Assembly (NCBI GenBank): GCA_031264185.1
Contig: JAISEL010000035.1
Coordinates: forward strand, 1 to 64,000
DNA length: 64,000 bases
Source of the DNA: Deltaproteobacteria bacterium
GTDB lineage: Bacteria; Desulfobacterota; Desulfarculia; Adiutricales; Adiutricaceae
Reading direction: 5' to 3'
Position 1 is the stretch's first letter, and the number at the start of each line of letters is the position of its first letter. Below, in pieces: positions 26,945 through 59,769 of this stretch. Under the pieces are notes generated by a model. It searched no databases. It worked only from the letters and a program-made list of their open reading frames with translations, and was not told where the DNA came from. Made by a program: the position numbers and the translations under genes.

Positions 26945-26965
26945 TCATTTCGGGTAAATTTTGCT

Positions 26966-33114: not shown

Positions 33115-33237
33115 CTGTAGTTAAATTTTAATATAGCTATCTCTTGAAATTGGGTTTATGTACTTTTCTTTAATAGTAATTGTTTTTAATTAGCTATTAT
33201 TTTATCAAATATATAAATAATGGATCAAATAAATTTA

Positions 33238-39200: not shown

Positions 39201-42200
39201 CATCTGATGAGCGATGCCTGGAGCGAGGGGCTGTTTTTTGCATCCCTGTTCGGCAGCGGCCGGGCGCCTTCTGCCGGTTTCGCCGGTTATCTTAAAGCCG
39301 TTTCTCTGAACGACCAGGAGCCGGACCGGATATTCTGGCGTGATTTTTTGAAGGATTTAAATGAAATAACCGAGCTGCCGGGGTACAGACGGCCCCTGAC
39401 GCCCGGCCTGACCGGCCGCGCCGTTAACCCGGGGGAAAGCGATAATTTAGCGCCGGCCCAAGTTTCAGGCCGGTCAGGGGAAAATTTAAAAACTCTGTCT
39501 TTTCCGCTTAATTTGCAGCAAAGCAATGACATCAGGAAGGCAGGCCGCTGGCTGCAGGCTGCGCCGGCCCTGTTTCTGGAGGCAGCCTGGGCCGTAATAG
39601 CGGCCAGGGCCGCCAGAGTCAGTCAGGTTTCCTATGCGGTGATCGATAACGGCCGCTCTCTGCCTCTCCAAGGCATAGCCGGTGTGATAGGCCCTTTGCT
39701 GACCGTCCTGCCCAGGCGGCTTTTCTACAGTCCGGAGTCCACTTTGGCCGATATGGTCAGGCAGATTTCCGCTCAAATGTCCGAAGTTCTGCCTCACGCA
39801 AACTTAACTTTGGCGGACATTCAAAAATGTTCCTCCCTTGGCCCGGGTTTTCTGACTCAGGTTTTTAACTACAGGCCGGCTGTAAGGACGCCTGAAGGAA
39901 TTCAAATTAAAAAAATTGACGATAAAAGCCGGGCTGAAGGCTTCCCTTTGGCTGTTAACTGGGAAAAATCAGATAATCTCTTCACTTTAGACTTTATCTA
40001 TGACAAAGCCGTCTTTGACTCTTATACGGTCAAATCCTTAGCTGAAGCCTATCTGCATTTTCTGAACACTATTTTTCAGGACATTCCCCGGCTGGCCGCC
40101 AAAGAGCAGCTCCGGCGCTTTAGTCTGTGTTCAGATGAGGAAGTCAGAAAACTGGTCACAGTCCGTAACGCTCCCGCCGTGAATTATCCGATCAGGACTG
40201 TGGTGGACGACTTTAACTCTTTGGCCGGCCGTTTTGAGGAAAGTCCGGCCGTCATTACCAGGGAGAAGAGGAAAACCTGCCGGGAGCTTGATGAAGAAAG
40301 CTTTTATCTGGCTGTCAGGCTTTATGAGATCTTTCAGAAGAGCCGTTTGAAGAGCAGAATGTCTTTCCGGGCGGCTCTTCTGCTCCCAAGGGACGTTAAC
40401 TATCCCGCCGCCGTCTGGGGAGTTCTGCGTTCGGGGGCGAGCTTTGTTCCTCTGGAATTGGGCGCCCCTTTGGAAAGGCTGTTATTTCAGCTCGATCAAA
40501 CCGGGGCCTCGGCTGCAATCGTTAATAAATCCCAGTTTCCTCTCTGGGCTGAACTGTCCCGTAAAAGGCCGGCCTTACAGATTTTGGATCTGGAATCCAG
40601 CCTGAGCCGGCCGCCGGATTATCCGAATGAACTGCAAGGCCGGAAGCTTCCGCCGGTCAGACCCTCCGATGAGGCCTACATCCTCTTTACTTCCGGCACT
40701 ACCGGTCAGCCCAAGGGAGTTTCTGTCCCCCACCGGGCCATCTATAACCATAACCGCTGGTTTGGAGACCTGATGGACGCCCAGCCCAGCGAAGTCCACA
40801 GCGCTTACGCGGCCTGGACCTTTGATGTTTCGGTTATGGAGATTTTGCTCCCCCTGAGCCGAGGGTCTGCGATCTATATTTTTGATGAATCGGAGCGCTT
40901 TGAGCCGGGGCTGATCAGCCAGGCGGTCAGGAACAACAGCATAAAGCATCTGTGGCTGCCTCCCCAGGTGGGCCAGACTTATATGGCCAACTACTCCCTC
41001 AGGGGCCTGAAAACCCTTAGTTTGGGCGGAGGGGTCTTTCCTTTGCCTTTTAAGGTGTTTGATCAGGGGGACTGCCGGCTGATTAACGGCTACGGGCCAA
41101 CGGAATGCGCGGTGACGGTCACCGCTAATTCAGCCGGACCGGGGTCTTGGCCGACTAATATCGGCGCCCCTGGAGCCAACTGCCCCATTTATGTCCTGGA
41201 TCCTTATGCAATGATGGTCCCTCTGGGCTTTGCCGGGGAATTGGCGGTGGGCGGGGTCCAGGTCGCCAGCGGCTACCTTCCCCCCGATCCCAATGATCCG
41301 CTGGTCTGCCTGGATCCGGGCGCTGATCCGGATTCGTCTGACGGTTCTGAGAATATCAAGGGGACACCGCCGTTTTTACCGGATAAGTTTTTTCATTACC
41401 GGAACGGCCAGTCCGGGCTTTATCCGCTTTACCGGACCGGAGATCTTGTCAGAAGACTGCCGGACGGGGCTTACGAGTTTTTAGGCCGCCTCGACCGGCA
41501 GATTAAAATAAGGGGGCGGCGCTTGGAGGTGTCGGAGATTGAAAAGGTTATCGCCGGCAGCCCTAAGGTGACCGAAAATACGGTAATTAAATGGACGGAA
41601 AATACTAAAGAAAAACTCATAGCCTATGTGGTCTTCCATCCGGCCGGGTCAGACGGCAGCGCAGAGCTGAAAAAAGAACTGGGCCTGAAGCTGCCTTCCT
41701 GGATGATTCCGGATTACGTTATGGCGGTTCCCCGGATCCCGAAAACCGCTTCAGGCAAACCCAACCTGACGGCCCTGCCCAAGCCGGTTTTAGTCTCGGT
41801 CTTTCAGGCTCCGGAAACCGCAGAGGAAAAGATTCTCGTGGCTGTTATCCGGGAGGTTTTAGGGGATGACAGCCCTATCAGTCTGGAAGATGACTTTCTG
41901 GCTTTGGGCGGAGATTCTGTTAAAGCCATTATGGCCGTGGCTTTACTGGAAAAGAGGGGATACAAGCTGCCGGCCAGGGCCTTATACGATGAGGCTACCT
42001 TAAGAGCCCTGGCCGCCTCTTTAAAGCCGGTGCCCGGCAGCGGCCGGGACAAAGCAGCCTTTGAGGCCGGTTCGCCGGGCGGATTCCGCCCGGCCTGTTC
42101 CGGCAGATCAGATGACTCTGACAGGGGGGTCAGCTTTTCTGACTCAGCAGTCTCAGAAGCTGCCGAGGGTTTCCAGGCCTTAGAGTCCTCGGTTTTCAGC

Positions 42201-45200
42201 TCCGGGTTCAGGCCGGAAACTGCCCCCGGACTGATAAATCCAGACGGACATAAAGATCCGCCTGCCGCCGGGGCCCTGGAAAGCGGACTTAAGGCTCAGA
42301 GTTCATTTCTGTCCGGGCGGAATTCTCAAGTCCTGGCGAATCCGTCTGATCAGTCTGATCCGGTCAGCCAGGCCGCGGCGGCTGATTTGCTCAGCCAGGA
42401 GGATCTTTTTTCCATAAGGGTTACGGAAAGCCTTCCTGCCGGCCCGGCTGCGGAACATTCGGCTTATGCCGTAAGCATAGATACTAAAGGACTGGGAGTG
42501 AACTTCCCGGCCCCTGCTTCTTCAGTCTCCGGGCTTAAGCGGCCTGACCGAAGTGACCATCAGGCCTCCCTCCGTTTCCGGCCGAAAACTTCAGAACTGA
42601 ACATCATTCTGTCCCAATATCCGAAAGACCAGGTTGTCGCTGTCCACGCCCTGACGGCTATGCAGGAGGCAATGCTCCTGGCCAGGGACGGCGACGCCTA
42701 CTGGATTAAGAATGCGGCCTCTTTAAACGGACCGCTGTCGGCGGAGAAATTAAGGGACAGCTGGGAGAATTTAGCTGCCAGTTATGAGATCCTCCGCAGC
42801 GCTGTTGTCAGTTTAGGTCTGTCCCGGCCTTACATGGTGGTTTTAAAAGAAAGGAAGCTGCCCTTTGAGTACCAAGATTTAAGCTCTTTGGCCCCAGAGG
42901 CTCAAGACAGCCTGATCAGTCTGGCTCCGGCTTTTCAGCCCGATTTGACTAAAGACCCGCTCATGGCTTTAAAAGTCTATAAGACGGCTCAGGACAGGCA
43001 CTGGCTGGTTCTCTTCTGGCATCACGTCATCCTGGACGGCTGGTCAATGTCCCGTATCTTAGGGAATCTTTTGGGGAAATCCTGCCTGGAGCCTCCGGCC
43101 GGCTCTCCGGAGGATCAGGTCAGTTTAAAATCAGGCGCCGTAACCGGTGCAGCAAATGAAGTGAACGGAACAGGGGTCAATGACGAACCGCCGGTCCGGC
43201 CGTTCCGCGACTATCTGAGCTGGCTGGAGCGGCAGCCGCACTCTTCAGCCCGCGCTTTTTGGTCCCAAGAACTGCAATCTGCGGAAATGGCCGCGACCGT
43301 GCCCAATCCCTTAGGCGGAGACGGGGTCAGAGACCCTGAGCCGGTGACTCTGGCTTTAGGCGCGGAATTGTCAGACCTCTTAAGGGCTTTAGGGAAAAGC
43401 GAGCGTCTGACTTTAAACGTTATCCTTCAGACTGCTTTGGGCATAGTTCTCTGCCGCTGCAACGGCCTGAGCTGCCAGGTCTTCTGCGGCCTGGATTCGG
43501 GCCGGTCCGGTCTGCCTTCGGAGTTGGCCGATGTGGTCGGCCCCTGCGTCAACCAGGTGCCGGTCCGGATTGATTATGATCCCCAAAGCAGTTTTGTCGG
43601 CCTGGCTAAAAAGGTTTTGGCCTTTAATCTGAAAGCCGTGGAATACGGCTTTTTGCCCTTAGCGGAGATCAGGACTTTAACCGGGCTGGACTTGGGCGGA
43701 CTTCTGTTCGCGCTGGAGAACCAGCCGGATTATCAGCTTCGGGGCCGCTACGAACTGACCCGGATTTTCAGTCAGAGCAGGGACGATCTGGGACTGGTTT
43801 TCGAGTGGTTTCAGGGCCGGAATTTGACCTTAAAGCTCCATTATGACGGCTTGAAATTTTCCCAAAGGCAGATTGAGGATTTGGCTGAATTTTACAGGGT
43901 CAGTCTCAGTTTTATCAGCCGCAGTCCTCATGACCCTGTGGGCGGGCTGGATATATTAACGCCTGAAGAGAAGGATCGGGTCATTGATCTCTGCTTCGGG
44001 GCCAAGACGGATTTTCCGGATGAATTAAGAGCTCTCGGGCTTAGCAGCCCGAAAAGCTTTATTGAAATCTTTATGAAAAGGGCCCGGCTGGATCCCGGTT
44101 CTCCGGCTCTGATCGAAAACGGCCGGACGGTTTTGACTTACGGGGAGCTGGATAATTTGAGCCTGGCCTTAGCCGGGCGCTTCAGGTCAATGGGAGCGGG
44201 GCCGGGGTCGGTGGTCGGCTTAAATCTCCCCAGAGGCCTGAATTACGCTGCGGCTGTCTTAGGAGTCTTAAGGGCCGGGGCCGCCTTTCTGCCCTTAGAT
44301 GTCTCCTGGCCTGAAGAGAGACTGGCCTTTGCGGTCAAAGACAGCCGGGCTAAGGTTATAGTTTCCCAGTTCTCCTCAGCCCCTCTTTGGGCGGGGGAGC
44401 TGGCGCATTTTACTTTTGAGTTCCGGAAGTTTTCTTCTGAGGCCAGGAAAACAGAGGACGGTTTTCGGGAAATGACCGTTCAGGCCGGGGAGCGGTCAGG
44501 CCGAATTCCGGCTTACGATCCGGAAGAGGCCGCTTACGTTATTTACACTTCCGGCTCCACCGGCCAGCCAAAAGGGGTGGTTGTAAAAAATCAGGGCCTG
44601 GTAAATATGGCCTTATGCTCTTTAGGTTTTTTTGACTTTAAGCTGAAAAAGCGTTTCAGTTTGTACGCGCCTGTTGCCTTTGACGCTTCGGTCTTTGAGA
44701 TCGTATTGGGTTTGGTCTCCGGGTCGGCATTAATCTCCGTTCCCGAAGAGATTCGTCTGGATCCCCCGAAACTTTCGCAGTTTTACGCTGATAACCTTAT
44801 CTATTTCGCTTTCCTGCCGCCTTTGGTCGGAGTGGAGGTCATTAAAGTCATTCAGGAGAAGTCCTCTCTGGAGATTCTGGCTTTGGCAGGGGACAAGCCG
44901 GGCCGGCTCTCTCCGGGCGGGAACGGTCTTAAGATCTATAATCTCTACGGTCCCACGGAGTTTACAGTTTGGTCCTCAGGCTACTTAATTGACCGGCCCC
45001 TGAACTCTCCTCCCATCGGCAGATCGCTGGCCAACTGCCAAAGTCTCATCTTAGATAAGGATTTAAACCTGCAGCCGCCGGGGTTAGTCGGGGAACTGTG
45101 CCTTTCCGGCCCCCAGCTGGCCAAAGGCTATTTGAACCGCCCCCAGTCAGAGGCCGGGGTTTTCCGGCCTAATCCCTATTCCAGAGGCTTAAAGGGTTTC

Positions 45201-48200
45201 GAGCGTCTGTACCGAACCGGAGATTTGGCCCTGTACGATTATCAGGGGCAGATAAATTTTTTAAACCGCCGGGATTTTCAGATAAAGATTCGCGGTCAGC
45301 GCCTGGAACCGGGGGAGGTGGAAAGGCAGATTTTAGCCGATGAGGAAGTAGCGGCAGTTTTGGTGGGCCTAAGTCCCAGGCTTGGGGACAGCGCCGGCTC
45401 TTCAGCTGATGAGACTGACCAGGCTTATCTGGTCGGCTGGGTGGTCCCTAAGATTTATCCGGCGGAGCCGTCTCTGGAGAGTCGAATCAGAACAAGGCTG
45501 ACCGGGGCTCTTCCGGCTTGGATGCGGCCAGGGTTTTACGTCTTCCTGGAGAAATTTCCCCAGGATAGGCACGGAAAAATAAGCGTCAAAGACTTGCCGG
45601 CCCCCGAGTTCCCAAAGACTGGAACCGGTTCCCCGAAAGGCGGTAACGGTGAGCTCCCGGGCTCCTTCCCTCAGGACCCCAATTCAGCAGGGCCGAATTC
45701 TGACGGGCAGCTGAGTCCGGCAGCGGCCCTGATTTCGGAAGTGAGCCGGGTCTTCAGCCGGGTCTTAGGTTTTTGGCCGGAGGAAGACGATCATTTTCTG
45801 GAAATAGGCGGGGACTCGATTAAAGCCATGATGGGCGTCTCCCAGCTGAGGTCTTTGGGCTACGATATCAGCACCAACGAGTTTTTATCAGCCCCGACCC
45901 CTAAAGCGGTGGCCGGGATTCTGTCCGCTAAGCCGCCGAAGTCCTTGAAGCCCTCAGAGTCTCCCGGGTCAGCCTCTTTTCGATCAGCGGATTCCGGCGA
46001 ACCCGGCCGGCCTGGCCTTCATAAGGCCGGCCAGTATGCCCGGGAGCTGGCTTTGGCCAGGGCGCATTTCGGATTAGGGACAGTTGAGGATCTCTTGCCC
46101 CTCGGACCTCTCCAGGCCGGCCTTTGGTTTCATTTGGCTCTGGAACCGGAGGCCCCGGTTTATGTGGAGCAGACTCTGTCCAAACTTAACGGAGTCTTGT
46201 CCGAAGAGCTGATAGCCGCAGCGGTCCGAAACATCGTCCGCAGGCATCAGGCTTTGCGCACCGTCTTTTGGGCCCCTGCCAGTCATTCACCGGAGTCAGG
46301 GCAGCCCTGGCAGGTCATTCTCAAGGATCTGCCTCCCTCTGTAACGGGCCTGAAAAACGCTGATTTACAGGTCAGTGGTTCTTTGGCCAGAGCCGAAAGG
46401 CAGGCCTTAAGCGGCCCCCGGGTTTTGGCGGGAGGCCCGCTATTCCGTTTAGTTATCAATGAGAAGGCCGGCCGGACAGAGATACTGCTGACTTTCCATC
46501 ACCTGATCCTGGACGGCTGGAGTGTGGGTCTGTTCTATGAGGAAATGCTCGGCGCCTTAAGTCATCAGGACTTTAGGCCCAGCTCCGGTCTTCCTTACTC
46601 TGAGTGCCTGAAAGCCTTAATGGCGGAAAGAGAAAAAAGCGGGCCCCATCTTAAATTTTGGGGAGAGCGTTTAAATTATGATCCCCCCGGGCCCTGGCCT
46701 TTAATAAGGGGCGCCGCCCCTGAGCCTGACGGATCCGGGGAGCTTAAAGCTTATAAAGAGATCGGACTGGCGCTTCAGGATTTGGCCCGGGATCTTTTTG
46801 ATTTGGCCAGAAGCCAAAGGGTCAGTCCGGCCACCTTAATCCAGGTCATCTGGGGCCTGCTGTTGCAAAAGTACCGGGGCGGGGCGGGATCCTGGTTCGG
46901 TCTGGTCGTTTCCGGCCGCGAGACGATTCCGGCATCTTTAGGGACTCTGGGCCTTTTTGTCAACACTGTGCCCCGCTACCTGCCCTTAAGCCTGAAAGCG
47001 GCTTTTGCAGAGGTTTTAGCCCAGACCCAGGCGGAGGCCGGAGCCGTCGGGGAGCACGCCTGCCTGACTTTGTCCGAGGCTTTAAAGGCCGCCGGTCATA
47101 ACGGACCGGCGGCCAGTATAATAGATCATCTTTTAGTCATTGAAAATCTGCCGAAAATTCAGGCCGCGGAGAATTTGGAGATAGCTTTTGAGAGCGGGTT
47201 CAATTATCCCGGATACGATCTTAATGCAGTTTTTTTTCTGTCTGAGGAATTGTCAGCCCCTGATTCGCCGGCAGATAACGCGGGGGCTGACTTCTGCCTT
47301 GACGGGCACATTAAATTCAGGGCCGACGTTTTCAGGCCCGATGATATTCAGACCCTGACAGGCCATTTCAGGTACCTCTGCCTGCAGGCTGTCAGCTCCC
47401 GCGGCCGGATGTCTGTCGGAGATTTTAAGCTGAACCGGCCTGAAGAAGAGGACGATATTATCCGTGCCGGATTCGGCGAAGAGCTGGCAGTCCCTTACGG
47501 CCTGATTTTCGGTTCCAGAAAGGCCGGCGGAGACAGTTCGGTCCCCTGGCCGGTACCCGTTTGTTTGGCCGGGCCAAAACCGTCCGCTTCGGAGTCGGCT
47601 GCGGAACCCCTGACGGAAAATTCCTTAGCCATAGTCTGGCCTGGGGGCCGGATGAGTTATTCCGGCCTTTTGGGGAAGGCGGGAAATCTGACGGCTGATT
47701 TTAAAGCCAAAGGTCTTGGTCCCGGGGCTCTGGTGGCCTTAACCCTTCCGCCAGGTCCGGCTTTGGTGATCAGCCTCCTGGCTGTTCTCCATTCGGGGGC
47801 TGCCTATCTGCCCATTGATCTTAAATGGCCTCAAGGGCGGATCGAGACCATCCTCAGATCGGCTCAGCCGGCCCTGGTCATTTCGGCTTCTGACAGCCCG
47901 AATCCGGTTCCGCCGTTCCAGGAAGTCCCGGAAGCTCCGGGAGCCGGGACTCCGGACAGTCTCTCTGACCGCTTTTCTGTAAAAGGCTTGTCGTTAAGTT
48001 CTCTGACTGTAGACTCCCTGGGAACCCCGGTCTCTTTTATCCCCGGGGCCTCATTTAAGGGCGCGGTCTCTTCAGGCTGCCCGGACCTGACTGACGGAAC
48101 AGCCTCCGCAGTCCCTGCTGACACGGCCTACGTCATCTACACCTCAGGCTCCACCGGCGAACCCAAAGGGGTCATGGTGGGCCGGGGGTCTCTGGCCGCT

Positions 48201-51200
48201 TTAGTTGCCGGTCTGGTTAAAGACTACGGCCTGACCTCCCAGGATCGCTCCATGGTGACCTTCAGTCCCGGGTTCGACGCCTTCGCCTGGGGTGTCTATC
48301 TTTTGCTAGCCGTTGGAGGTCAGGTCCATTTTCCGCCCCGGGATATTCTGACTGATGCGTCCCGGCTGCGGGATTATATGGCGGAAAACTCAGTCACGGT
48401 GGCCAATATGCCTACGGTCCTGGCTGAGGCCATCCAACGGTTGGAACCTCCTCAGTCCCTGAGACTTCTGACTTGCGGCGGCGACAGACTCAGTTTTTAT
48501 CAAAAGCGCCCCTACGCTTTTTACAACGAGTACGGTCCCACGGAAGCGACGGTTTTAGTCACCAAGCACCTGGTGACTGAAACCGCCGCCCCCATTCCCA
48601 TCGGGCGGCCCATCCCCGGGGTTCAGACTCTTATCTTAGGGCCGCATGACGAAATAAGACCTTTTAATATGGCCGGTGAGCTGGTCTTAAGCGGTCCCTG
48701 CCTGGCTTTGGGTTATTTGAGGCGGGAGGATTTAACTCAGGCCAGCTTTGCCGAAAACCCCTGCGCTTTAAAGGCCGGGGCGCTCCGGGAGCCCCGGCCC
48801 TCTCCCAATTTCGATCCCAGCTCCTATCAAACAATCTACCGGACCGGGGATCTGGCCAGAATGGGCCCGGACGGCCTGATTGAGTTTATCGGGCGGATAG
48901 ACAGCCAGGCCAGTATCGGCGGGATAAGAGTCGAACCGGCCGAGGTGGAGGCCAGAATTAAGGATAATCCCCAGGTGGATCGGGCTTTGGTTTTAGCCCG
49001 CAAAGATGCCGCCGGAGACAGTTTTTTAGCGGCCTATATTACGGCCGGCGCAGCCCGAGGGGCCAATTCTGAAAGCCTGGGTTCGGGGGAAGCCTTGATT
49101 AAGACGGTCACTGACCATTTAAGCGCCCATCTGCCTACGGCCTTCAGGCCCAAGTTCATCTGCCTGTTAGACCGGTTCCCTTTGACGGCTAACGGGAAAA
49201 TTGATTATTTGGCCCTCCCGGCGGCCGGTAACGCCCCGGTCGGCTCTGCGGACCCGGAAAAGACGGGGCTCCCCGAATCTTATAAGCCCCGGAGTGCGGT
49301 GGAGGCCAGCGTTTTGGAAGCGTACCGGGAAATTTTGGGGGCAGCGGATGCTGACGGCATAGACCCTGAAGCGGATTTTTTCAGCTTAGGCGGCGATTCC
49401 TTAAAGGCCGTGCGTTTAGCGGCCCGTCTGGAGACAGTCCTGAAGGCGGCCCCTAAGGTGTCGGAACTTATAGGCGGGTTCAGCCTAAAAAAACTCTGCG
49501 AGTCTGTTGAAGGCCGGAAGGCCGGCCGGAAGGAGATTCTTTCCCCTTTAAGGTTAGGCGCTGGTCCGGCTCTGATAATCGTGCCCACTGTGGGCGGCAG
49601 TCTCTGGGCTTACCGGGAGTTTTACCGGAGACTGCCTCAGGACCGTTCTCTCTACGCTTTGGACCCCAATTGGGAGTCAGCGGTTTCAGCCGTTGAGGCG
49701 GTTAATGGGGCCGATAAACTGGCCGCTCTGGTCAGACCCTACGCTGAGGCTGTACTGGAACTCCGCGCTGAGGTGGTTCTCTGCGGCCTGTGTCTGGCCG
49801 GACTGACCGCCTGGGAACTGGGCCGCCAGCTTCTCGACCGGGGGGCTCAGGTCAGATCTCTGTTGTTTTTCAATGCCCGAACCCGCCTTTTGACTGAAGG
49901 GGAGCCGGTTAAAGAAGGCGATTCGCCTCCTGAGGCGATGGCCGAAGAACTTCTGTCTTCCATGCGTCTGTATGAAGGCGCCGAAAAATTCCCTGACCGG
50001 CCGGAAAATTTTATAAATATGAGTTTCCCTGAACACCTCAGACGTTACGCGTCGGCTCAGCTGTCGGCCTGGGGATTTTACCGGCCGCAGCCGATGGATG
50101 TAAAGCTGACTTGCCTCAGGCCTTTGGATTCCTTCGGGCCAAAGTACCTGCCCTTTGAAACCGGCCCCCTGGGCTGGGAAGAGCTGGCCCTGCAGGGTTA
50201 CCGGGAGGTCCGCACCCCGGGTCACCACTATGACCTTTTAAGGCTCCCCGCGGTCAATACTGCGGTCACGGTAGCCGGAGAACTGACCGCCGAGAAGACC
50301 TCCAGACCTGCGGTTCCTCTGACTCCAATCCAAAAGTGGTACTTTGAACTGGGACCAAAGGCCTGGCCCATGTTTCAGAGTGTCGGGCTGGTGAGCCAAG
50401 TCGCCAGGCCGCCGTGGGTTTATCTTCTGGTTTTAGAGGACCTTTTAAAGACCCATCCGATGCTCCGGGCGAGTTTTCCGGAAAATGACGGCGGCGCTGA
50501 GGCCAGGATAACCTCAGATTTTACGGCTTTCACTTTTGAGATATCGGCGGATCGGAATTTAGAAGGACTGACGGAAAGATTCGGCCAGATAGCCCGGAAA
50601 TACTTGCAAAATGCAGATCCCTTAGTCATATTTTTATTGGGCCGGACTGACCAGGGGCAGGACTGTTTTCTTTTGGCCGTCCACCATTTGGTGGTTGATA
50701 ATGTTTCCTGGCGGGTTTTGGAAAGCGACTTTAAGCGGTCTCTTTCGGCTTTGGACGGCCAGGGGGTTTTGGATTATGACCGGGCCAAAAACGGCCTGGC
50801 CCGTCTGCCCAAACCGGAAGCGTCCGGCAGCGTCTTCCGGATTTATGCCCAAAAGCTGTCTTCATTGGCCTTGGACAATGATTTTTTGGCGGCTGAGGCC
50901 GCCTACTGGGGCGGAGCTTTAGAGGCCATGGGGCCGCCTCTGCCTTCTTTAGCGGAGACGCTCCGAAAGGCCCCCGAATTCAGAGGCCTCAGAGTCAGTA
51001 AAACTCCGGAAAAAGCAAGTTTGCAGTTTGAATTAAACAGTTCGGACACTGAGCTTTTTCTGACCGCTCTGGGTCCGGAATTTGGGGCTCGGGAAATGCT
51101 TTTAACGTCCCTGCTGCTGTCGGCCGCTGAGGGTTTCGGAGTTAAGGAGCTGACTTTCTGCCTGGAAGGGCACGGGCGGACCCCTGTTTTCCCGGAAGCG

Positions 51201-51701
51201 GATTTGGCCTCGGCTGTTGGCTGGTTTACGGTTTTGTATCCGGTCCGGCTAAGCTTAGGATCAACCCCCTTGGATACTTTGAAGATCGCGGCCGAAAAAC
51301 TTAGGGCTGTCCCTCATAACGGCATCGGTTACGGCGTTTTAAAATATCTGGCCGGGCAGAATAATCCTGGCTGTCCGCCCGGCTGTTCCGGTCCGGGGGC
51401 TGAACTGCCTAAACTCCCTTGGCTTAAGCGTCCGGCTGACGTTCTGTTTAACTATTTAAGTGAAATTAATTCCGGGGCTGAAGAAACCTCTTCAATAAGT
51501 ATTGAGAGGCTGGGCTCCCCCTACGACAGTCCGGTCACTTTTCCGGCCCAGGGATCTTTGTCCGTAAGCGCTTTTATCGACAGGGGCGCTCTGAAATCCA
51601 CCTGGATTTGGTCTGAGGCGATCAACATTGATCTGCTGAGCTGGGCTGCCGGGTTCCAAGCCAGCCTGCTTGGCTTAGGACGTATTTTAAAGGGCGTTTA
51701 G
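33238..51701 (+). CDS. non-ribosomal peptide synthetase, about 6150 aa: ACP - class III aminotransferase (AMT) - C-A-T - C-A-T - C-A-T - C-A-T - TE(Cys) - C
   Basis: Carrier motif GLDSL (about 33340). AMT PLP-fold with YGKLIGGG (34150-35400). C motifs SHLMIDG (35787), HHLMSDAWS (39199), HHVILDGWS (43018), HHLILDGWS (46494), HHLVVDNVSW (50680). Four A domains each with (Y/F)TSG(S/T)TG(Q/E)PKG, FD(A/V)S, N.YGPTE, YRTGD, K.RG. Four PCP GGDS(V/I/L)(K/G)A motifs. TE with GLCLAG at 49785. Start codon uncertain (33180/33238/33247, all in frame). Confidence 0.95.
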
Positions 51702-51705
51702 GCCG

Positions 51706-52509
51706 ATGAGTCGCTTTTTAGTGTTAGCCGGCCGGCTGGCCCCGGAGCTTTTAGACCGGAATCTAGGCGGTTTGACCAGGCTGTTCGGTTATCTGGCCGA
51801 AGAGCAGACTTTGGCAATTCAAAAAAACCGGCGGCCTCAAGATGCGGCCTTAAGGCTGCTGGTCCGGGTGTTATTGGTTAAAGCCTTAGATCTTAACGGT
51901 TTGGACGGCCTTTCAATACTGCCTGATCTTATCTGGAATGACCGTGGTCAGCCGGAACTGAAAGGAAGCCCTCTGAGGTTAAGCTTCAGCCACTCCTGGC
52001 CTTACGGGGCCTGCGCTGTAGCTTTGTTTCCTGTGGGGGTGGATGTGGAAAGAATCCAGCCATTGGCGGTCGGCGGGGCCGGTTCGGTTTTCTCGGATTC
52101 TGAAGTGCGCCGCATTTCGGGATCCGATGATCCTCAGTCGGAAGCCATCCGTCTTTGGACAGTCAAAGAGTCCGGTCTTAAAGCTCTTGGGGCCGGATTT
52201 TTAGAAGATCCTAAAAGGCTGAAAACTGAACCGGTCTTTAATGAGTCAGCCGGACAAAAGGCGCCGCCAGCGGGGCGGTCGGTTTGGGGCAGTCGGACGA
52301 TCTATTTCGGGCATTTGCCGGTGGACCCAGGCTACTGGCTGTCCTGGGGCGCCTGTCCGGATTTTCAGGAGCCGCCGGTAAATTCTCAGGCCGGTCAAAG
52401 TCTTAAAGCCTCTGAACAGGTCCGGGCCTCTGCCCGTTTTTTCGGGCCGGCCTCCCTTATTTATCTGCCCCGGGTCAGTGAGTATATAATGAACAGACTC
52501 ATAGAGTGA
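51706..52509 (+). CDS. Sfp-type 4'-phosphopantetheinyl transferase
   Basis: Motifs GVDVE and WTVKESGLKALG. Starts 4 nt after the NRPS stop. Confidence 0.85.
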   Translation: MSRFLVLAGRLAPELLDRNLGGLTRLFGYLAEEQTLAIQKNRRPQDAALRLLVRVLLVKALDLNGLDGLSILPDLIWNDRGQPELKGSPLRLSFSHSWPYGACAVALFPVGVDVERIQPLAVGGAGSVFSDSEVRRISGSDDPQSEAIRLWTVKESGLKALGAGFLEDPKRLKTEPVFNESAGQKAPPAGRSVWGSRTIYFGHLPVDPGYWLSWGACPDFQEPPVNSQAGQSLKASEQVRASARFFGPASLIYLPRVSEYIMNRLIE

Positions 52510-52551: not shown

Positions 52552-55500
52552 ATGATTTTTTTGGGTAGGAGTATGAAAGATCTTATATACGTATTTTCCG
52601 GTTTGGGCTCGCAGTGGGCGGGCATGGGGGCTGATCTGATAGATTCCGACCAGGTTTTCACCGAAGCCTTCAGGGAATTCGATTCGAGTTTCCGGGCCTG
52701 CAGCGGCTGGTCCGTTGAGGAAAAGCTGTTCCGCTCTGACGAGCCCGTAGCCTTATCTTACGCCCAGTTCTGGCATCCGGCCATTGTGGCTGTCCAGTAC
52801 GCTCTGTATAAGGCCTGCGAAAACAGACTGCCCAAACCTCAGGCTGTCCTCGGGCACAGCGGCGGAGAGGCGGCGGCCGCTTTAATAGCCGGGGCTTTAA
52901 GCTTGAAAGAGGCGGCCTGTCTGACCTGCGGACACATTAAGCTTATGGAAAAGACCTCTCCCGGCGCACTTATGCATCTGCCCATAAGCTTTTCGGCCGC
53001 TAAGGAGCTGACTGAAGGGACCTCTATAACGGTAGCCGCCGTCAATTCGCCCTCTTCGGTGGTTTTAGCCGGCGACAGCGGGGTTTTAAATGATTTTCTT
53101 TTAACTGAAAATCTGACCGGGACGGCCCGCCTTGTTCCGTTTGACCGCTCTTTTCATTCGCCGGCTTTAGAGCCTTTCGGAGCGGATTTTGAAAAAAATC
53201 TCCAAATAAAACCCCAAAAGGCTAACTTTACATTTATCTCTTCCTTTCTCGCCCGGATTGTCCCTGGCGAGGCTTTAACCCCCGCCTACTGGCGCCGTCA
53301 TGCGGCCGAACCGGTTCGCTTTGATAAAGCCGTAGAACTGTCTTTGTATTTGGGAGCCAAAGGGTTCGTAGATTTTTCCCCCCATCCGATATTCCTTCAG
53401 GCGCTGCACGAGACGGCCAGTCTTCAGGGCCGGAACATCTTTTATGTCAATTTAATGCAGCGGCATCAGAAAAGTCTGCCGGTAATAGCCTCAGCTTTGA
53501 CTAGATTAAAAGAGGCCGGGAGCAAAACGTTCAGCTCTTCTGGGCCTCAGGCCTCTGAAGACCGGGACGGCCCGGAAAACCTGCTCCCGCCCGGAGCCTC
53601 AGATCCGACCCTCCAGGCTGACCTGGAGCTGCCGGGCCTGAACATTCATCAAAGGGCAGCGGCTTTAGAAAAGTTTCTGGTCAGTAAGCTTCACGAACTG
53701 ACCGAAATTCCGGATGACCGGACCGGGGAGACCGCCCTGTGCCCTTTTATGAGTCTGGGTCTGGATTCCCTGAATTTGGTCAGCCTGATTAATGATTTAG
53801 CTTTAAAGACCGGCCTGACTTTGGCCCCGTCTTTGGTGTTCAGCTACCCGGAAGCCAGATCGCTGGCCAGGTATTCAGCTGAAGCCATGGAACTCCCCAA
53901 GTCTGATTCCGGTGAGACCGGCTGCTTTTTAAAATCCTCCGCTGCCCAGTCCTCTTCCGATCGGCGCCCGGAAGTTAAGGCCGGTCTGACCGGCCGCGAA
54001 CCTCTGGCCGTGGTTGGCCTGGCTTTTCGGTTTCCGGGCGGGGCTGTGGATGGTGAGAGTTTTTGGCGGATACTTAAAGAGGGCAGGGATGCGATCGGAA
54101 TAATTCCCAAAAGCCGCTGGAATGCAGAGGATTTTTATCATCCTGACCGTGAACACCCAGGGACCATGTACACCCGGTCCGGCGGCTTTATTGAGGATAC
54201 TTTCCAGGGATTTGACGCTAATTTTTTCGGTCTGGCCGGCCGTGAGGCCAAGCAGCTCGACCCCCAGCAGCGTCTTTTGCTGGAACTCAGCTGGGAGGCC
54301 TTTGAAGACGGCTCAATTGATCCTCTGAAGTGGAAGAATAAGCGGGCCGGGGTGTTTTTAGGCATGACCAACAGCGAATACAGCCGGGCCCACCGCGATT
54401 CTTTTGACCGGGACCTCATTGATGCCTATTCCCTGACCGGAACCACTATGAGCGGGGCCTGCGGCCGGCTGTCTTATTTTTACGGCTTTAATGGTCCCTG
54501 CTTTACGGTAGATACCGCCTGTTCTTCCAGCTTGGTCGCCTTAGCCCAGGCCGGTCAGAGTCTGAGAGCCGGGGAATCGGATTTAGCTTTGGTCGGGGCG
54601 GTTTCTTTGATGCTCATTCCGGAAATGCACATCTGCTTCACCAAGTTGGGGGCCATCAGCAGCGACGGGCGCAGCAAGGCCTTCGATGACGGGGCTGACG
54701 GTTACGGCCGGGGCGAAGGGGCGGCGGTAGTCCTGCTGAAAAGGCTGGGGGACGCCGAAAAAGCCGGGGATCGGATTTTAGGGACTATTAAGGGGCACTA
54801 CCTTAATCAGGACGGACGGAGCAACGGTCTGACCGCACCCTCTGGTCTGGCCCAGCAGGAGCTGATCAAAGGCTCTTTGGCGGACGCCGGACTGCTGCCT
54901 TCGGAGATTGATTATGTGGAAGCCCACGGAACCGGCACCTCTTTAGGCGATCTGGTGGAGCTGGAGGCCTTGTCGGCGGCCTACGGCCCCGGGCGCCTGA
55001 AGCCTTTGCTGATCGGCTCAGTCAAGGCCAATATCGGGCACTTAGAACCGGTGTCCGGCCTGGCTTCCCTGATTAAAGTCCTACTGGCCATGAAGCACGG
55101 TCAGATTCCGGCTAATATTCACTTAAAAAGCCCTAACCGCCGCTTTGACTGGGCCAAAGGCCGGATTGCGGCCCCCACCTCTTTGGTAAGCTGGCCGGAT
55201 AATGAGTCCGGGGCCTTAAAAAGGGCCGGCCTGAGCGCTTTCGGTTTTTCCGGGGTCAACGGGCATCTGATAGTCGAAGAATACCGCCGAACGGAATCAG
55301 CCGCAAGCCTGAAAGGGCAGTCTGCGGACAGTGTGGCTTCTGAGCCGCCCATCCTTCTCCTTTTGTCGGCCAAGAGTCAGAAAGCCCTGGAAGAACTGGC
55401 CTTTAAGGTCGCCCAAAGGCTCAGAAACTGCGATCGCCGGGCAGCCCTGAACTTAGCCTACAGTCTGGCCAATCACCGGCCGCACTTCGAATTTCGGGCA

Positions 55501-58500
55501 GCCTTAGTCGGCAGCTCTCCTTCGGAATTAGCGGACCGGCTAGCCAGTATCCGGGTCCGTAAAACCAGAGGTCCAAGACCTCTCGGCCTTTTATTTACCG
55601 GTCAGGGCTCCCAATGCCCCGGTTTAGGCTGGGAGCTGTATAAAGCTTACCCGGTTTTTCAGGAAAGTCTGGATTCTGCCCGGAAGCTCTTGCTGCCCCG
55701 GGGTATTGATCCGATTAGTTTAATTAACCCTGACCTCCCTCCCGAGGCGCTGACCCCGACTCAGATTTCCCAGCCTTTGATTTGCGCGGTCAGTTTGGCT
55801 TTGTACGATCTTTGGACTTATGTGGGCCTGACTTTTGACAGTGTCCTAGGGCACAGCGTCGGCGAGTTCCCGGCTTTAGCCGCCAGCGGGATCCTGGATC
55901 GCCGGACCGCAGTGGATCTGGTCTGTCAAAGAGGCCTTTTAATGGCCCAGGCCCCGGACGGTTCCATGACAGCGGTGTTCGCTTCAGTTGCGGAGATAGA
56001 GCCGGTTTTAAAGGACTTTCCGGATGTCAGGATCGCGGCCGATAACGCAGTCTCTTCTGTAACTTTATCCGGTCCCGCTGACTCTTTAAGCCGGTTGAGC
56101 GGGTATCTGGAGAAAGAAAAGATCAGTTCAGTGCCTCTGAAGGTTTCGGCGGCTTTTCATTCTCCGGCCATGCAGGAGGCCGCTGAAAAGTTTGACGAGT
56201 ATATCTCCCTCAAGTACGGTCAGAACAGCCCCGACTCTTTTTCTGACCTGGAAAAAACGGGCCGGCGGGGAGAATTTGGCTTCCGTCAGTCCAGGGAATC
56301 TCCGGCGCCTCTCAGCCCCTGCGGACTCCTGCAGCCGAAGGGCAGCCAGTATCCGGTTTTTATCTCCAGCCTTTTGGCTCAACCGGCTTATTCGGTCGAT
56401 TCCGGCTATTTTGGCCGACAGATCGCCTCACCGGTACGTTTTCGGGAGGCCAGTTCCGTTATGGCCCAAAGAGTCAGTCTGGCCGTGGAGGCCGGTCCCT
56501 CGGGAGCCCTTTCCGGGCTGGTGGCCCAGGGCGGGCAGATATTAGGACTCAGCACTCTGAAGCCCGGCCGTTCGGCTCTGGAGAGCTTTTTGGTCGCAGC
56601 CTCGGAACTGTATCAGGAGGGGTTTGATCTTGACTGGGGCAAGGTCTGGGAACCTCTTCCCCAAGGCCGGACCAGTCTGCCTGCCTATCCCTTCCAAAGG
56701 GAGCGCTTCTGGCTGGAAGTCCGGCACTCCCCGCCGCACTTTCCGGCCCCGAAAGCCGGAATGGCCGCCGCTGAAGCTGATGAGGCCCCCCGAAAAAGGC
56801 ACCCCGTTTTAGGCCGCCTCATCAAAAGTCCGGCTCTGGGCAAAGCCTCGGTCTTTGAAACCGTCTTCAATGAAGAAGGACCTAGGTTTCTCTGGGAGCA
56901 CCGCATCCTGGGGCGGGCCGTCAGTCCGGCCGCCGGGCATGCGGCCATGGTCTTAGCGGCGGCGGAAGCTCTGCGCGGCCGGGCGGTCTGCGAATTGAAG
57001 GAGGTCAGCTTTACCCAGCCTTTAGTGATAGGTCCTCGGGAGGAACGTCTGGTTCAGGTCATTGTCGATAATCCCCAGGATGACTTAAGCGCCTTTTCTT
57101 TGGTCAGTTGCGGAAAAAATGCTTCTGAGTTTGTCACCCATGCGGCTGGTTTTATTAGTTTTGCAGTCCCAGAAAAGCCCAAAAATAATCCGGAGGCCGT
57201 AAAACAGCGGCCTCAGACCATGACCGTGGACAGTTACTGCAGCGCTTTCGCTGACTACGGGTACGGCTTAGCCCCGGACTTCTGGCGGCTGTCTTCAATT
57301 TTTGTCGACGGCCCGGAAAATTACTGCCAGGTGGAAGCCAGAAGACACACCCCCTCAGAAGCCGGTCACGTCATTTATCCGGGCTCTTTAGACAGTGTCT
57401 TTCAAACCACTATGCCGGCCGTAATTAATGAGGCCGTACCTTTTATGGTCGCCAATAACGGCCTTTTTGTCCCTCTGTTCATGGAAAGTCTGAGTTTGTG
57501 GGCCCAGGTTCCTGAAAAGCTTTTTTGTCACGGCCTGACGAAGTTCAGCGCATCCCCTCTGGGCATCACCAGTTCCGTGACGGCTTATGACCGGACCGGG
57601 GAGCCGGTCCTGGCTGTCAGATCCCTTTATCTGCCCCTGACCAGTCAAAAGGTTTTTTACAGGCGGCCGCCTTTGACCCCGGCCCCGGTTTTTGGCCGTG
57701 ATTCAGGAACCGCTGAGGACCAATCCCCGCTGCGTTTTTATCTGGAGAAATGGCAGAAGGCAGATCTGTCAGCGGCAAAAAAAGTTACTCAGCTGAGCCG
57801 TGAAACTGTCAGCTGCGATAATCTGCCTGACCTGAAAGATCGGGCGCTTGAAGTCATCAGTCTGGGCCGTTTCCTGGCTCAGGGCTCTGAGGCCGGGGTT
57901 TTAGCCGGCCGGGATAAAAGCCGCCGGAATTTCACCGGTTATTCAGCCGAAGCTTCCTCCCGGCTGACGTTATCGGCTGACTGCGATATTGTCTTACTGG
58001 CTCCTGCCGGTCAGACGGAGATCTCCGCCGAGCTGCCCTTCAGAGAGCTTGCCCTCTTCAATGAATGCCTGGCTTATGTAAAAGTCCTCTTAAAAAGCCC
58101 GTATAAGCACCGGATACATTTGGTCACCGCACGGGCCAGAGTCGTTGACTGCATAGAGCATCCGGACAGCGGCGGCCGCAATGAGCCGGTCTCTTTGCAG
58201 GGCGCCAGCCTCATCGGCTTAGGCCGGACTCTGGCTTTGGAAAGACCGGATCTCTGGGCCGGGCAGCTGGATATATCTGGGGACAGCCGGGAAGATGCTC
58301 TGGAGATTATCAGACGCTTAAATAATGAACTGTCCGGTGAGCCTTACGAACTGGCTTTTCGGGGCGGGGTTTTTTACGAGCCTTTCTTATTAAATCATCA
58401 GGCGCCCTCCGGCTTGGATCTCCCTGAAGCCCTTAAAGACCATAAAGACAATAATGTCCAGGGAATTCAGGTCATCACCGGGGCCAACGGCGCCTTAACC

Positions 58501-59769
58501 CGAAAACTGGCTGAACATTTAGTCGGCAGAGGCGCCCGGGAGCTAGCCTTAATCAGCCGGGAGGGCTTATCCGGCGAGTCTTTGCAGCTGGCTGAGGAGT
58601 TAAGGGCCAGGGGCGTTACAGTTCTGGATTTAAACGCTGATGTCACGGTTTTTGGGGAATTGAGCCAGGCTCTGGCCTCAGCCAGAGAGGCAGGTGCGAT
58701 AAAGGGGATATGGCATCTGGCCGGGACTCTGGCGGATGGGCTGATTGAGGCTATGTCCGAGGAGAGGGTCCTTAAGGTCTTAGGGCCCAAGATTTTTGGA
58801 GCCGTTAATCTCCATCTGGCAACTTTAAAAGATCCCCTGGACTATTTTACGCTTTTTTCTTCCGTAGCCGCTCTTTTGGGATCAGCCGGTCAGGCCGGCT
58901 ATGTCTCCGCCAACTTTTTTATGGAGGCCATTGCCCGTTACCGGCGGCTGCAGAAATTGCCCTCGGCCGCTCCTGAGTGGGGCCCACTGGCCGGTTCCGG
59001 CATGGCCGGCAGTGCCGTGCGCGGTGATAACCTCAGGCGTCAGGGTTTTATTCCGCTGGAGACTTTTGAGTTCTTCCGGGTTTTGGATTCAGTCTTGGGG
59101 CAAAAATCGGAGGACTCAGAGGTCCTTGGGGTGTTCGGGGCTGTGAAGATGGACCTGGAAAAATTTTTCCGGCACCCGGAACGGCGCCGGGACCGGCGCC
59201 TTAAGTCCATTATCCCCCGGCCGGCCAAGACCGGCGGACCAGGGAACGGGTCGGGAGACCGATCCCGCCGCGCCCCCGGGGACGGTGTAAACGACGGGTT
59301 AGCCTTAGCTTTAAGCCAGTTAAATCTGGCAGGGGACCGGGGGCCCGTTCTGCAGGAACTGACGGAACTGGCCGCCGATCTTTTAGGCTTCGCTCCTCAG
59401 GATATCGATCCGCAAAAACCTTTAAGCGACTACGGCTTTGACTCCCTGATGACGGTTTCCCTGCGCAACCGGCTGGGCAGCGCTTTAGGCCGCAGCGTTC
59501 CGGTATCTTTAGCCTTCGAGCACCCGACAGTTTCGGCTATGACCGACTGGCTGGCTTTAAATTTTGGCCCGGCCTCCGGTGAGGCGGCCGGCGGCCTGGG
59601 GGTTGCCGGATCCTCAGAATCCGACCGGCAGGACCAGCCGTACCTGCCGGATAAAACCGATCGGCCTGACCGGTTTGACCGGACTGCCCCCCCGCTGGCT
59701 CCACTCGGAGGGGCGATTAGTGTCGATGCCCTGATGTCGGACATAGAAAAGCTTTTGGATAATCAATGA
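52552..59769 (+). CDS. type I polyketide synthase: loading AT-ACP + module KS-AT-DH-KR-ACP
   Basis: AT1 GHSGGE (about 52850). ACP LGLDSL (about 53760). KS DTACSSSLVAL / EAHGTGT / NIGHLE. AT2 GHSVGE with AAFHS (malonyl-type). DH HRILGRAVSPAAGH. KR GANGALTRKLA. ACP GFDSLMTV. Alternative start ATG 52573. Confidence 0.95.
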   Translation: MIFLGRSMKDLIYVFSGLGSQWAGMGADLIDSDQVFTEAFREFDSSFRACSGWSVEEKLFRSDEPVALSYAQFWHPAIVAVQYALYKACENRLPKPQAVLGHSGGEAAAALIAGALSLKEAACLTCGHIKLMEKTSPGALMHLPISFSAAKELTEGTSITVAAVNSPSSVVLAGDSGVLNDFLLTENLTGTARLVPFDRSFHSPALEPFGADFEKNLQIKPQKANFTFISSFLARIVPGEALTPAYWRRHAAEPVRFDKAVELSLYLGAKGFVDFSPHPIFLQALHETASLQGRNIFYVNLMQRHQKSLPVIASALTRLKEAGSKTFSSSGPQASEDRDGPENLLPPGASDPTLQADLELPGLNIHQRAAALEKFLVSKLHELTEIPDDRTGETALCPFMSLGLDSLNLVSLINDLALKTGLTLAPSLVFSYPEARSLARYSAEAMELPKSDSGETGCFLKSSAAQSSSDRRPEVKAGLTGREPLAVVGLAFRFPGGAVDGESFWRILKEGRDAIGIIPKSRWNAEDFYHPDREHPGTMYTRSGGFIEDTFQGFDANFFGLAGREAKQLDPQQRLLLELSWEAFEDGSIDPLKWKNKRAGVFLGMTNSEYSRAHRDSFDRDLIDAYSLTGTTMSGACGRLSYFYGFNGPCFTVDTACSSSLVALAQAGQSLRAGESDLALVGAVSLMLIPEMHICFTKLGAISSDGRSKAFDDGADGYGRGEGAAVVLLKRLGDAEKAGDRILGTIKGHYLNQDGRSNGLTAPSGLAQQELIKGSLADAGLLPSEIDYVEAHGTGTSLGDLVELEALSAAYGPGRLKPLLIGSVKANIGHLEPVSGLASLIKVLLAMKHGQIPANIHLKSPNRRFDWAKGRIAAPTSLVSWPDNESGALKRAGLSAFGFSGVNGHLIVEEYRRTESAASLKGQSADSVASEPPILLLLSAKSQKALEELAFKVAQRLRNCDRRAALNLAYSLANHRPHFEFRAALVGSSPSELADRLASIRVRKTRGPRPLGLLFTGQGSQCPGLGWELYKAYPVFQESLDSARKLLLPRGIDPISLINPDLPPEALTPTQISQPLICAVSLALYDLWTYVGLTFDSVLGHSVGEFPALAASGILDRRTAVDLVCQRGLLMAQAPDGSMTAVFASVAEIEPVLKDFPDVRIAADNAVSSVTLSGPADSLSRLSGYLEKEKISSVPLKVSAAFHSPAMQEAAEKFDEYISLKYGQNSPDSFSDLEKTGRRGEFGFRQSRESPAPLSPCGLLQPKGSQYPVFISSLLAQPAYSVDSGYFGRQIASPVRFREASSVMAQRVSLAVEAGPSGALSGLVAQGGQILGLSTLKPGRSALESFLVAASELYQEGFDLDWGKVWEPLPQGRTSLPAYPFQRERFWLEVRHSPPHFPAPKAGMAAAEADEAPRKRHPVLGRLIKSPALGKASVFETVFNEEGPRFLWEHRILGRAVSPAAGHAAMVLAAAEALRGRAVCELKEVSFTQPLVIGPREERLVQVIVDNPQDDLSAFSLVSCGKNASEFVTHAAGFISFAVPEKPKNNPEAVKQRPQTMTVDSYCSAFADYGYGLAPDFWRLSSIFVDGPENYCQVEARRHTPSEAGHVIYPGSLDSVFQTTMPAVINEAVPFMVANNGLFVPLFMESLSLWAQVPEKLFCHGLTKFSASPLGITSSVTAYDRTGEPVLAVRSLYLPLTSQKVFYRRPPLTPAPVFGRDSGTAEDQSPLRFYLEKWQKADLSAAKKVTQLSRETVSCDNLPDLKDRALEVISLGRFLAQGSEAGVLAGRDKSRRNFTGYSAEASSRLTLSADCDIVLLAPAGQTEISAELPFRELALFNECLAYVKVLLKSPYKHRIHLVTARARVVDCIEHPDSGGRNEPVSLQGASLIGLGRTLALERPDLWAGQLDISGDSREDALEIIRRLNNELSGEPYELAFRGGVFYEPFLLNHQAPSGLDLPEALKDHKDNNVQGIQVITGANGALTRKLAEHLVGRGARELALISREGLSGESLQLAEELRARGVTVLDLNADVTVFGELSQALASAREAGAIKGIWHLAGTLADGLIEAMSEERVLKVLGPKIFGAVNLHLATLKDPLDYFTLFSSVAALLGSAGQAGYVSANFFMEAIARYRRLQKLPSAAPEWGPLAGSGMAGSAVRGDNLRRQGFIPLETFEFFRVLDSVLGQKSEDSEVLGVFGAVKMDLEKFFRHPERRRDRRLKSIIPRPAKTGGPGNGSGDRSRRAPGDGVNDGLALALSQLNLAGDRGPVLQELTELAADLLGFAPQDIDPQKPLSDYGFDSLMTVSLRNRLGSALGRSVPVSLAFEHPTVSAMTDWLALNFGPASGEAAGGLGVAGSSESDRQDQPYLPDKTDRPDRFDRTAPPLAPLGGAISVDALMSDIEKLLDNQ

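Follow-up and report, generated by a model that had tools for sequence, protein, structure and literature searches.

A predicted cysteine-dependent thioesterase placed before an epimerization domain in an uncharacterised family of non-ribosomal peptide synthetases

Introduction

Why might a thioesterase (TE) employ cysteine, rather than serine, as its nucleophile, and what kind of product release could be served by a TE that stands in front of an epimerization (E) domain and not behind it? Both questions are raised by one non-ribosomal peptide synthetase (NRPS) gene (33237..51701, + strand) lying within positions 1 to 64,000 of contig JAISEL010000035.1 (assembly GCA_031264185.1, Deltaproteobacteria bacterium); this whole stretch of 64,000 nucleotides is referred to below as the window. 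The encoded protein, of 6154 amino acids when read from an ATG, has the Pfam domain order acyl carrier protein (ACP) - aminotransferase - (C-A-T)x4 - TE - E, where C-A-T denotes a condensation-adenylation-thiolation module.

Cys-TEs, of which only three have been characterised, catalyse release in several ring closures that are difficult chemically, and mutational work on two of the three, ObiF and SulM, indicates that the cysteine matters for such closures (PMC11298585, PMC6668435). An earlier note on this DNA, made from its letters alone, had tied the characterised Cys-TEs to strained rings and suggested that the TE described here might be of the same kind. As a generalisation this describes ObiF and SulM well, but does not extend to BulbE-TE, which makes a 15-membered macrolactam (PMC11536411).

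Here, we confirm by sequence alignment and structure prediction that the cysteine is the nucleophile-elbow residue of a PF00975 TE, and argue that the domain is very likely to be a functional, Cys-dependent release enzyme. By comparison of sequences it belongs to a conserved and uncharacterised family of NRPS-polyketide synthase (PKS) clusters from uncultured Deltaproteobacteria, Accumulibacter and relatives. The TEs of this family add two features, neither of which was noticed in the earlier note or came up in the literature searched: an invariant Asn in the column of the canonical triad Asp, and an E domain of ~460 residues joined to the C-terminal side of the TE instead of preceding it. The family offers a test case for why Cys should be chosen over Ser in a TE, and for whether thioester acyl-enzymes allow loading that is both reversible and stereoselective.

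The nucleophile elbow

The TE domain, an alpha/beta hydrolase, spans 49533..50297 (+), matching the limits of 49540-50290 proposed in the earlier note, and when taken alone scores 34.5 bits against PF00975 (gathering cut-off 26.4). Counting from Glu at 49533 as residue 1, the segment around the presumptive nucleophile reads VVLCGLCLAGLTAWELGRQL, where the second Cys, a TGT codon at 49791..49793 (+) in frame with the open reading frame (ORF) 33180..51701, is Cys87 of the domain (Cys5538 of the ORF) and sits within the motif GLCLAG. In phmmer alignments to PDB sequences Cys87 pairs with the catalytic residues of Vlm2 (Ser, in GHSLGG) and ObiF1 (Cys, in GHCAGN), as well as with the Cys of AB3403 (GWCFGG), and a profile built from the family keeps the same register. 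A single-sequence AlphaFold2 model was unusable (predicted local distance difference test, pLDDT, 38) and was replaced by one calculated from nine family sequences (pLDDT 85.7; predicted template modelling score, pTM, 0.88), which places Cys87 between strand 81-86 and helix 89-102, the position of the nucleophile elbow. The alignment and modelling that had been suggested as a check on this residue, and the reading of it as the nucleophile, are therefore in accord. The replacement of the second Gly of the motif by Ala is correct for the window sequence, with A, G, S or T being found at this position in relatives.

Retention of the catalytic His region (PGHHYDLL), also noted earlier, is borne out: the second His of PGHHYD, His232 (CAC, 50226..50228, +), is invariant in the family alignment, follows the last core strand of the model (beta8, residues 223-228), and aligns with the His of PGDHSS in AB3403. 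For the remaining member of the triad there are two candidates. The column after beta6 that holds the canonical catalytic Asp (‘position I’) is occupied by Asn114 (AAT, 49872..49874, +; in LLFFNART), which comes after strand 107-113 in the model, aligns with the Asp of AB3403 (‘miDTRa’) and of Vlm2 (‘ilDTp’), and is again invariant in the family. An acidic residue is available elsewhere, in the form of Asp199 (GAT, 50127..50129, +), lying two residues past beta7 (strand 191-197 in the model), and 33 residues ahead of His232, at the ‘position II’ location known from ObiF, SulM and RifR; this position is D or E in seven of the nine aligned family sequences and Ala in the other two.

Conservation and frequency of the cysteine

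An exhaustive search of 1.84 billion cluster representatives returned 10 clusters at E < 1e-30, whilst a word-index homologue search with the TE alone gave no match at E <= 1e-3. Across an alignment of nine family sequences, which are 36-47% identical, GLCxxG is invariant, with the full set of invariant residues comprising G85-L86-C87, G90, W94-E95, N114, R116, R196-P197, P207-F208-E209, L213-G214-W215, G230 and H232. The TGT codon recurs unchanged in an assembly made independently from this organism (Logan SRR14710921, contig L001), and in seven loci from other genomes the codon is TGC. As the residue is invariant at this level of divergence, while its codon differs synonymously between genomes, we consider the cysteine to be under selection.

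The view that Cys-TEs are rare holds only in part. Amongst the 150 best cluster representatives, a sample biased toward relatives of a Cys-containing query, the nucleophile column holds Cys in 38 and Ser in 109; Cys is the less common type but, judged from these sequences, is plainly no oddity within this branch of TEs. Position I holds Asn in 17 of the 38 Cys-TEs (7 of 28 outside the window family) as compared with two of the 109 Ser-TEs, and for the 28 other Cys-TEs against the Ser-TEs the difference is significant when calculated without phylogenetic correction (Fisher p = 2e-4). This suggests that a Cys-His-Asn active site may be a recurring variant among NRPS thioesterases; in the literature searched, we found no description of an invariant Asn replacing the triad Asp of a Cys-TE.

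The end of the assembly line

The TE directly follows the fourth peptidyl carrier domain (49302..49512, +, limits approximate; PF00550), whose phosphopantetheine Ser lies in LGGDSL at 49398-49400, yet it is not C-terminal, having the E domain (50313..51698, +; PF00668) behind it. The latter has the motifs PLTPIQKWYF, HHLVVDNVSW (from 50682), LEGHGR (from 51165), VGWFT, NGIGYG and FNYL, and its best matches in the PDB are E domains, those of BacC (bacitracin synthetase 3), TycA (2xhg), PvdL and GrsA (E 1e-26 to 1e-33). The motifs, including HHxxxD and EGHGR, are kept across the family, with one member having DH in place of HH; by this signature, the C-terminal domain is predicted to be a complete epimerization domain.

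Segment-by-segment BLAST comparisons find the whole order ACP-aminotransferase-(C-A-T)x4-TE-E, collinear with that of the window, in P0002, P0003, P0008, P0009 and P0010, which are relatives of full length. The NRPS ORF stops ~450 amino acids past the TE in five loci (L003, L004, L005, L007 and L008), and no further NRPS is encoded downstream in the two loci whose downstream genes were scanned (L003 and L007), where phosphopantetheinyl transferase or efflux genes are found instead. Since the ORF stops at this point, with no NRPS following it, we regard TE-E as the true end of the assembly line; the possibility that an E-terminated protein hands its peptide on to another NRPS was considered and rejected, given the lack of a downstream NRPS in the homologous loci examined. 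No other release domain was detected in the NRPS or at any family locus examined. Taken at the level of sequence, T-TE(Cys)-E (T being the thiolation, or carrier, domain) behaves as a conserved termination unit. The literature searched yielded no paper describing the TE-then-E order. This order may be an accident of gene fusion; the TE of ObiF likewise tolerates domains after it, these being an MLP (MbtH-like protein) and an aryl adenylation (A) domain in the P. fluorescens protein.

A model for product release

Synthesis of the substrate is suggested by the remaining domains and by two PKS genes downstream. The N-terminal ACP (PF00550) and class-III aminotransferase (PF00202; of the glutamate-1-semialdehyde, GSA, type and hemL/GSA-aminomutase-like, 213 bits) occupy 33237..35381 (+), a region that is 60-71% identical among family members, and by analogy the aminotransferase would make a beta-amino acyl starter. 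The PKS proteins have the domain contents AT-ACP-KS-AT-DH-KR-ACP (52552..59769, +; loading and first extension) and KS-AT (59766..62894, +), where AT, KS, DH and KR are acyltransferase, ketosynthase, dehydratase and ketoreductase domains. As the KS-AT protein has no carrier domain, while the NRPS starts with an ACP (33237..33536) and the aminotransferase, the last ketide extension must cross between the two proteins, which presumably pair as a split module; the NRPS gene has the coding region for the KS-AT on one side and that for the N-terminal ACP on the other.

We propose that the two PKS proteins would assemble, on the N-terminal ACP of the NRPS, a short beta-keto acyl chain, which the aminotransferase would convert to the beta-amino acyl starter, with four amino acids then being added by the NRPS modules. 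Whilst the peptide is held on carrier domain 4, the E domain would equilibrate the alpha-carbon of its last residue. Cys87, activated by His232 (in turn oriented by Asn114 and/or Asp199), would take the peptide by transthioesterification, and the free beta-amine of the starter would attack the resulting thioester acyl-enzyme to generate a 16-membered head-to-tail lactam, by the logic of iturin, to be exported by ATP-binding cassette (ABC) and/or resistance-nodulation-division (RND) systems. The reason for using Cys and not Ser would be the much greater reactivity of a thioester acyl-enzyme toward amines, the rationale put forward for BulbE-TE (PMC11536411). The beta-amino starter, which had earlier been taken as a hint of unusual release chemistry, would then be relevant as the probable nucleophile for a macrolactam, and not for a four-membered ring. 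The product would probably be a D-residue-rich cyclic beta-amino peptide. To this full reading, that of a Cys release TE of an AB3403-like subclass that takes the D-epimerised peptide and closes it head-to-tail onto the beta-amino starter, we assign a probability of about one in two.

The subclass is named for the TE of AB3403 (ABBFA_003403, from Acinetobacter baumannii; PDB 4zxh/4zxi), which is by far the closest solved structure. In a search of the PDB with the family profile, AB3403 scores 85 bits, ahead of the tautomycetin TE (55), Vlm2 (41) and ObiF1 (33), with SulM absent at E <= 1. The AB3403 and window TEs share Cys in G-x-C-x-G-G (G-x-C-x-G/A-G in the informal pattern that describes the subclass), (D/N)-T-R after beta6, LGW before beta8 and P-G-x-H, so that the window TE departs from AB3403 in this pattern only by the change of Asp to Asn at position I. 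The synthetases differ more, in that AB3403 is a single C-A-T-TE module with its TE at the C-terminus and no E domain. Ac-505, a metabolite linked to the AB3403 cluster, may be the adduct that an electrophilic precursor forms with glutathione (PMC5376624).

The chemistry that we propose is closest to that of BulbE-TE, where a mid-sized macrolactam, that of bulbiferamide, is made by aminolysis of a thioester acyl-enzyme and the third triad residue is at position I. Its authors consider the thioester to be far more reactive to amines than an oxoester, and the C961S mutant gives hydrolysis only (PMC11536411). BulbE-TE, which we liken to the window TE by description only, differs in having an Asp (Asp988) at position I (PMC11536411), an indole nitrogen as nucleophile, and no E domain after the TE.

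For the origin of the starter, the obvious comparison is with iturin- and mycosubtilin-type lines, in which a free beta-amine closes a macrolactam at the TE; a study of puwainaphycin reportedly bears on the same kind of ring closure. As in these MycA-type lines, a PKS-made beta-keto acyl chain would be transaminated on a carrier domain ahead of NRPS extension, and the ACP-Aminotran_3-C order, with the class-III aminotransferase directly before the first C domain, is present here, alongside a KS-AT protein without a carrier in the cluster. Unlike the iturin type, the window line has a separate KS-AT protein, a short starter (two extensions) and only four modules; its TE, which carries Cys, stands ahead of an E domain.

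As to the stereochemistry of the peptide, the Ser motifs of the carrier domains, at residues 1707, 2890, 4190 and 5384 of the 6154-residue NRPS, read GGDS(V/I/L) in all four peptidyl carrier domains, as they do in relatives. Carrier domains that serve E or dual E/C domains are marked by GGDS. The NRPS is without internal E domains, and the N-terminal motifs of C2-C4 are, by eye, of the DCL/dual type. Going by these motifs, the peptide may be rich in D-residues introduced by dual E/C domains, in which case a separate E domain would be needed for the last residue only.

Several points weigh against this model. The NRPS family is known from its genes alone, and AB3403, the closest solved relative, has no assigned chemistry. 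Cyclisation and hydrolysis cannot be told apart from a sequence, and lines of the microginin type leave the beta-amine free. The partner of His232 could be either Asn114 or Asp199, and an Asp-to-Asn change normally weakens the triad of a Ser hydrolase, such that TE activity is possibly reduced or altered. Finally, the placement of the TE before the E domain is left unexplained by macrolactam release.

Alternative explanations

One alternative is that the Cys-TE simply hydrolyses its acyl-enzyme to yield a linear, microginin-like beta-amino acyl tetrapeptide acid, the cysteine being neutral or specific to the lineage; the Cys would then be a sequence curiosity in an ordinary hydrolase. For it speak the presence of the TE fold and of its catalytic residues, the frequent occurrence of Cys in the nearest TE clusters (38/150), and the existence of linear beta-amino lipopeptides. 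Thioesters and oxoesters are also hydrolysed at similar rates (PMC11536411). Set against this are the strict conservation of Cys at 36-47% identity, which argues for a functional requirement, and the behaviour of every Cys-TE mutated so far, in which hydrolysis is supported by Ser but the non-hydrolytic outcome depends on Cys; moreover, the free beta-amine of the starter is a ready intramolecular nucleophile. We consider simple hydrolysis to be unlikely, if still worth keeping in mind.

We also speculate, with rather less conviction, that T-TE(Cys/His/Asn)-E might be a termination device of its own kind, with the selection of Cys coupled to the unusual arrangement of domains. When the peptide passes from the carrier thiol to that of Cys, the thioester exchange is near-thermoneutral, so that loading of the TE would be reversible; with reversible loading, an E domain placed after the TE could still act before commitment. 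In such a scheme the E domain would keep equilibrating the C-terminal stereocentre of the carrier-bound peptide and only the D-epimer would be committed to macrolactamisation, with a papain-like Cys-His-Asn arrangement replacing Ser-His-Asp.

A further alternative, and the one hinted at in the earlier note, is that the TE is of the ObiF/SulM type, with its Cys acyl-enzyme being resolved by the beta-hydroxyl or beta-amine of the C-terminal residue to form a beta-lactone or beta-lactam. ObiF1 and SulM do combine a Cys nucleophile with an Asp moved to the loop after beta7 (position II) (PMC11298585, PMC6668435), and each loses ring formation when its Cys is changed to Ser; the window TE has the Cys and, in Asp199, an Asp shortly after beta7 whose spacing from the His resembles that of Asp1254/His1284 in ObiF1 and Asp2926/His2956 in SulM. 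Position II is, however, not conserved in the window family, being Ala in 2/9 members, whereas position I, a Gly in ObiF1 (PMC6668435), is an invariant Asn. Criteria for SulM-like TEs add a Gln-Cys-Asn motif, Arg residues and an A domain specific for diaminopropionate (Dap) (PMC11298585); the motif is absent, its place being taken by Leu-Cys-Leu in the window and by Leu-Cys-Leu/Met across the family.

The terminal adenylation code gives this alternative little help. It was extracted by alignment to GrsA, for which the sequence that we used returned the published DAWTIAAICK at the right numbering, and reads DAWNTGEVLK, conserved in the family as DAWN(T/A)GE(V/I)(L/M)K. With the codes that we take to be those of Thr and Asn it agrees at best at 6/10 positions, and we name no amino acid from it; the agreement with the presumed Thr code, DFWNIGMVHK, includes W239 and N278, so that a terminal beta-hydroxy residue is conceivable. 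It differs from the Dap code of SulA3 (DVWEMNADDK) and fits none of the three modes of diamino-acid binding (PMC12042044), whose acidic residues it lacks. A beta-lactamase-fold enzyme encoded next door would also fit a strained-ring product, but is exported and D-peptidase-like (see below). Neither a sulfotransferase (SulN) nor a Thr transaldolase (ObiH) family member was found among window ORFs of >= 136 amino acids scanned with Pfam. The products of ObiF and SulM are di- or tripeptides, much shorter than the substrate of the window line, and neither line has a terminal E domain. With the family profile preferring AB3403 to ObiF1 (85 as against 33 bits) and failing to detect SulM at E <= 1, the assignment fails most of its own tests and is not supported; by our estimate it is improbable.

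We are still less inclined to believe that the TE has no part in release, acting instead as an embedded editing or shuttle domain, or persisting in weakened form, with release left to the E-like domain as a cyclising C domain or to another enzyme such as the beta-lactamase-fold neighbour. The internal position of the TE and the missing canonical Asp would be in keeping with this, and thioesterases of the penicillin-binding-protein (PBP, or SurE) type act on NRPSs ending in an E domain. Lines off-loaded by SurE-type enzymes resemble the window line in so ending, with a D-configured C-terminal residue to be expected, and an S12/beta-lactamase-fold gene is adjacent here; the window line differs from them in having its own TE in cis. 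Editing TEs embedded in megasynthases are known (PMC5707447), and the TE of ObiF, too, has domains after it. Against such a role, the TE never varies at its Cys, His and Asn, the C-terminal domain has a full E signature with true E domains as its best PDB matches, and there is no other release domain at any of the loci examined. The neighbouring S12 protein, with its signal-peptide-like N-terminus and autotransporter barrel, should act outside the cytoplasm, and being an exported autotransporter would be unable to reach the carrier domain; as a SurE-type off-loading enzyme it was therefore rejected, its closest similarity being to D-peptidases.

That the cysteine is an artefact, either of sequencing or assembly at 49791-49793 (a possibility raised in the earlier note) or of misalignment with a nearby Ser as the true nucleophile, can be dismissed on the family alignment and the codon comparison across genomes, as the independent assembly carries the same TGT, seven other genomes have Cys, three independent alignments and the model concur, and the elbow segment, VVLCGLCLAGLT, contains no Ser.

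Gene limits, neighbouring genes and related loci

The mechanical ORF for the NRPS (33180..51701, +) opens with TTG at 33180 and gives 6173 amino acids, whilst the gene call on the independent contig L001 gives 6154, beginning MNEMSLL 19 codons downstream of the TTG; the ATG at 33237 is the likelier start. An antisense ORF overlapping the TE (49686..50228, 180 amino acids, GTG start) was taken as spurious, as it lies inside a conserved coding region.

In a scan of species-representative genomes the family was found at seven loci, all in metagenome-assembled genomes (MAGs), assigned to Deltaproteobacteria, Candidatus Adiutrix, Accumulibacter, Rhodospirillaceae, Desulfovibrionaceae and one ‘Proteobacteria’. 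Where there is enough flank, the genes after the NRPS are one for a phosphopantetheinyl transferase and, beyond it, efflux genes encoding either HlyD/AcrB/OEP or a TIGR01194-type ABC exporter. In the window the 4'-phosphopantetheinyl transferase lies at 51706..52509 (+), and also directly follows the homologous NRPS in L003, L004, L005, L006 and L008. An ABC transporter of the TIGR01194 type (‘cyclic peptide export’) is represented by its N-terminal part at 62946..64000 (+), where the gene runs off the window; its full-length homologue in L008 scores 284 bits against TIGR01194 (cut-off 286). Membership of this family lends weak support to a cyclic product, through the family name only.

Upstream of the NRPS, an autotransporter of 1292 amino acids (29159..33037, +) carries an S12/beta-lactamase-fold, D-peptidase-like passenger, with SQSK at residue 104 and an N-terminus that resembles a signal peptide. 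The passenger is closest to alkaline D-peptidase (4y7p) and an S12 D-amidohydrolase (3wwx), and has a homologue with 33% identity in the Accumulibacter cluster (L007 19372-20604). From these similarities, the protein may be an extracellular enzyme for D-specific processing of the product, or for self-protection against it.

SPFH/Band-7, PF04392 substrate-binding-like and DUF697 proteins are encoded at 25509..28755 (+), adjoining the NRPS; the same set recurs by the homologous NRPS in Desulfovibrionaceae and Deltaproteobacteria MAGs (L008 12785-17902, L005 5761-8174), and these are apparently conserved accessory genes. In the cluster from Candidatus Adiutrix (L003 17067-20433) the efflux pump is followed by genes for a 3-hydroxyacyl-CoA dehydrogenase, an acyl-CoA dehydrogenase and a HAD-family (perhaps FkbH-like) protein, a set resembling that for hydroxymalonyl- or methoxymalonyl-ACP extender units. 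Further upstream in the window, and apparently unrelated to the cluster, are a gene for an SPFH protein that has five zinc-ribbon repeats and a tandem pair of DUF805 genes (20322..21731 and 18175..19479, +), and, farther upstream again, periplasmic glucan (MdoG/MdoH-like) genes.

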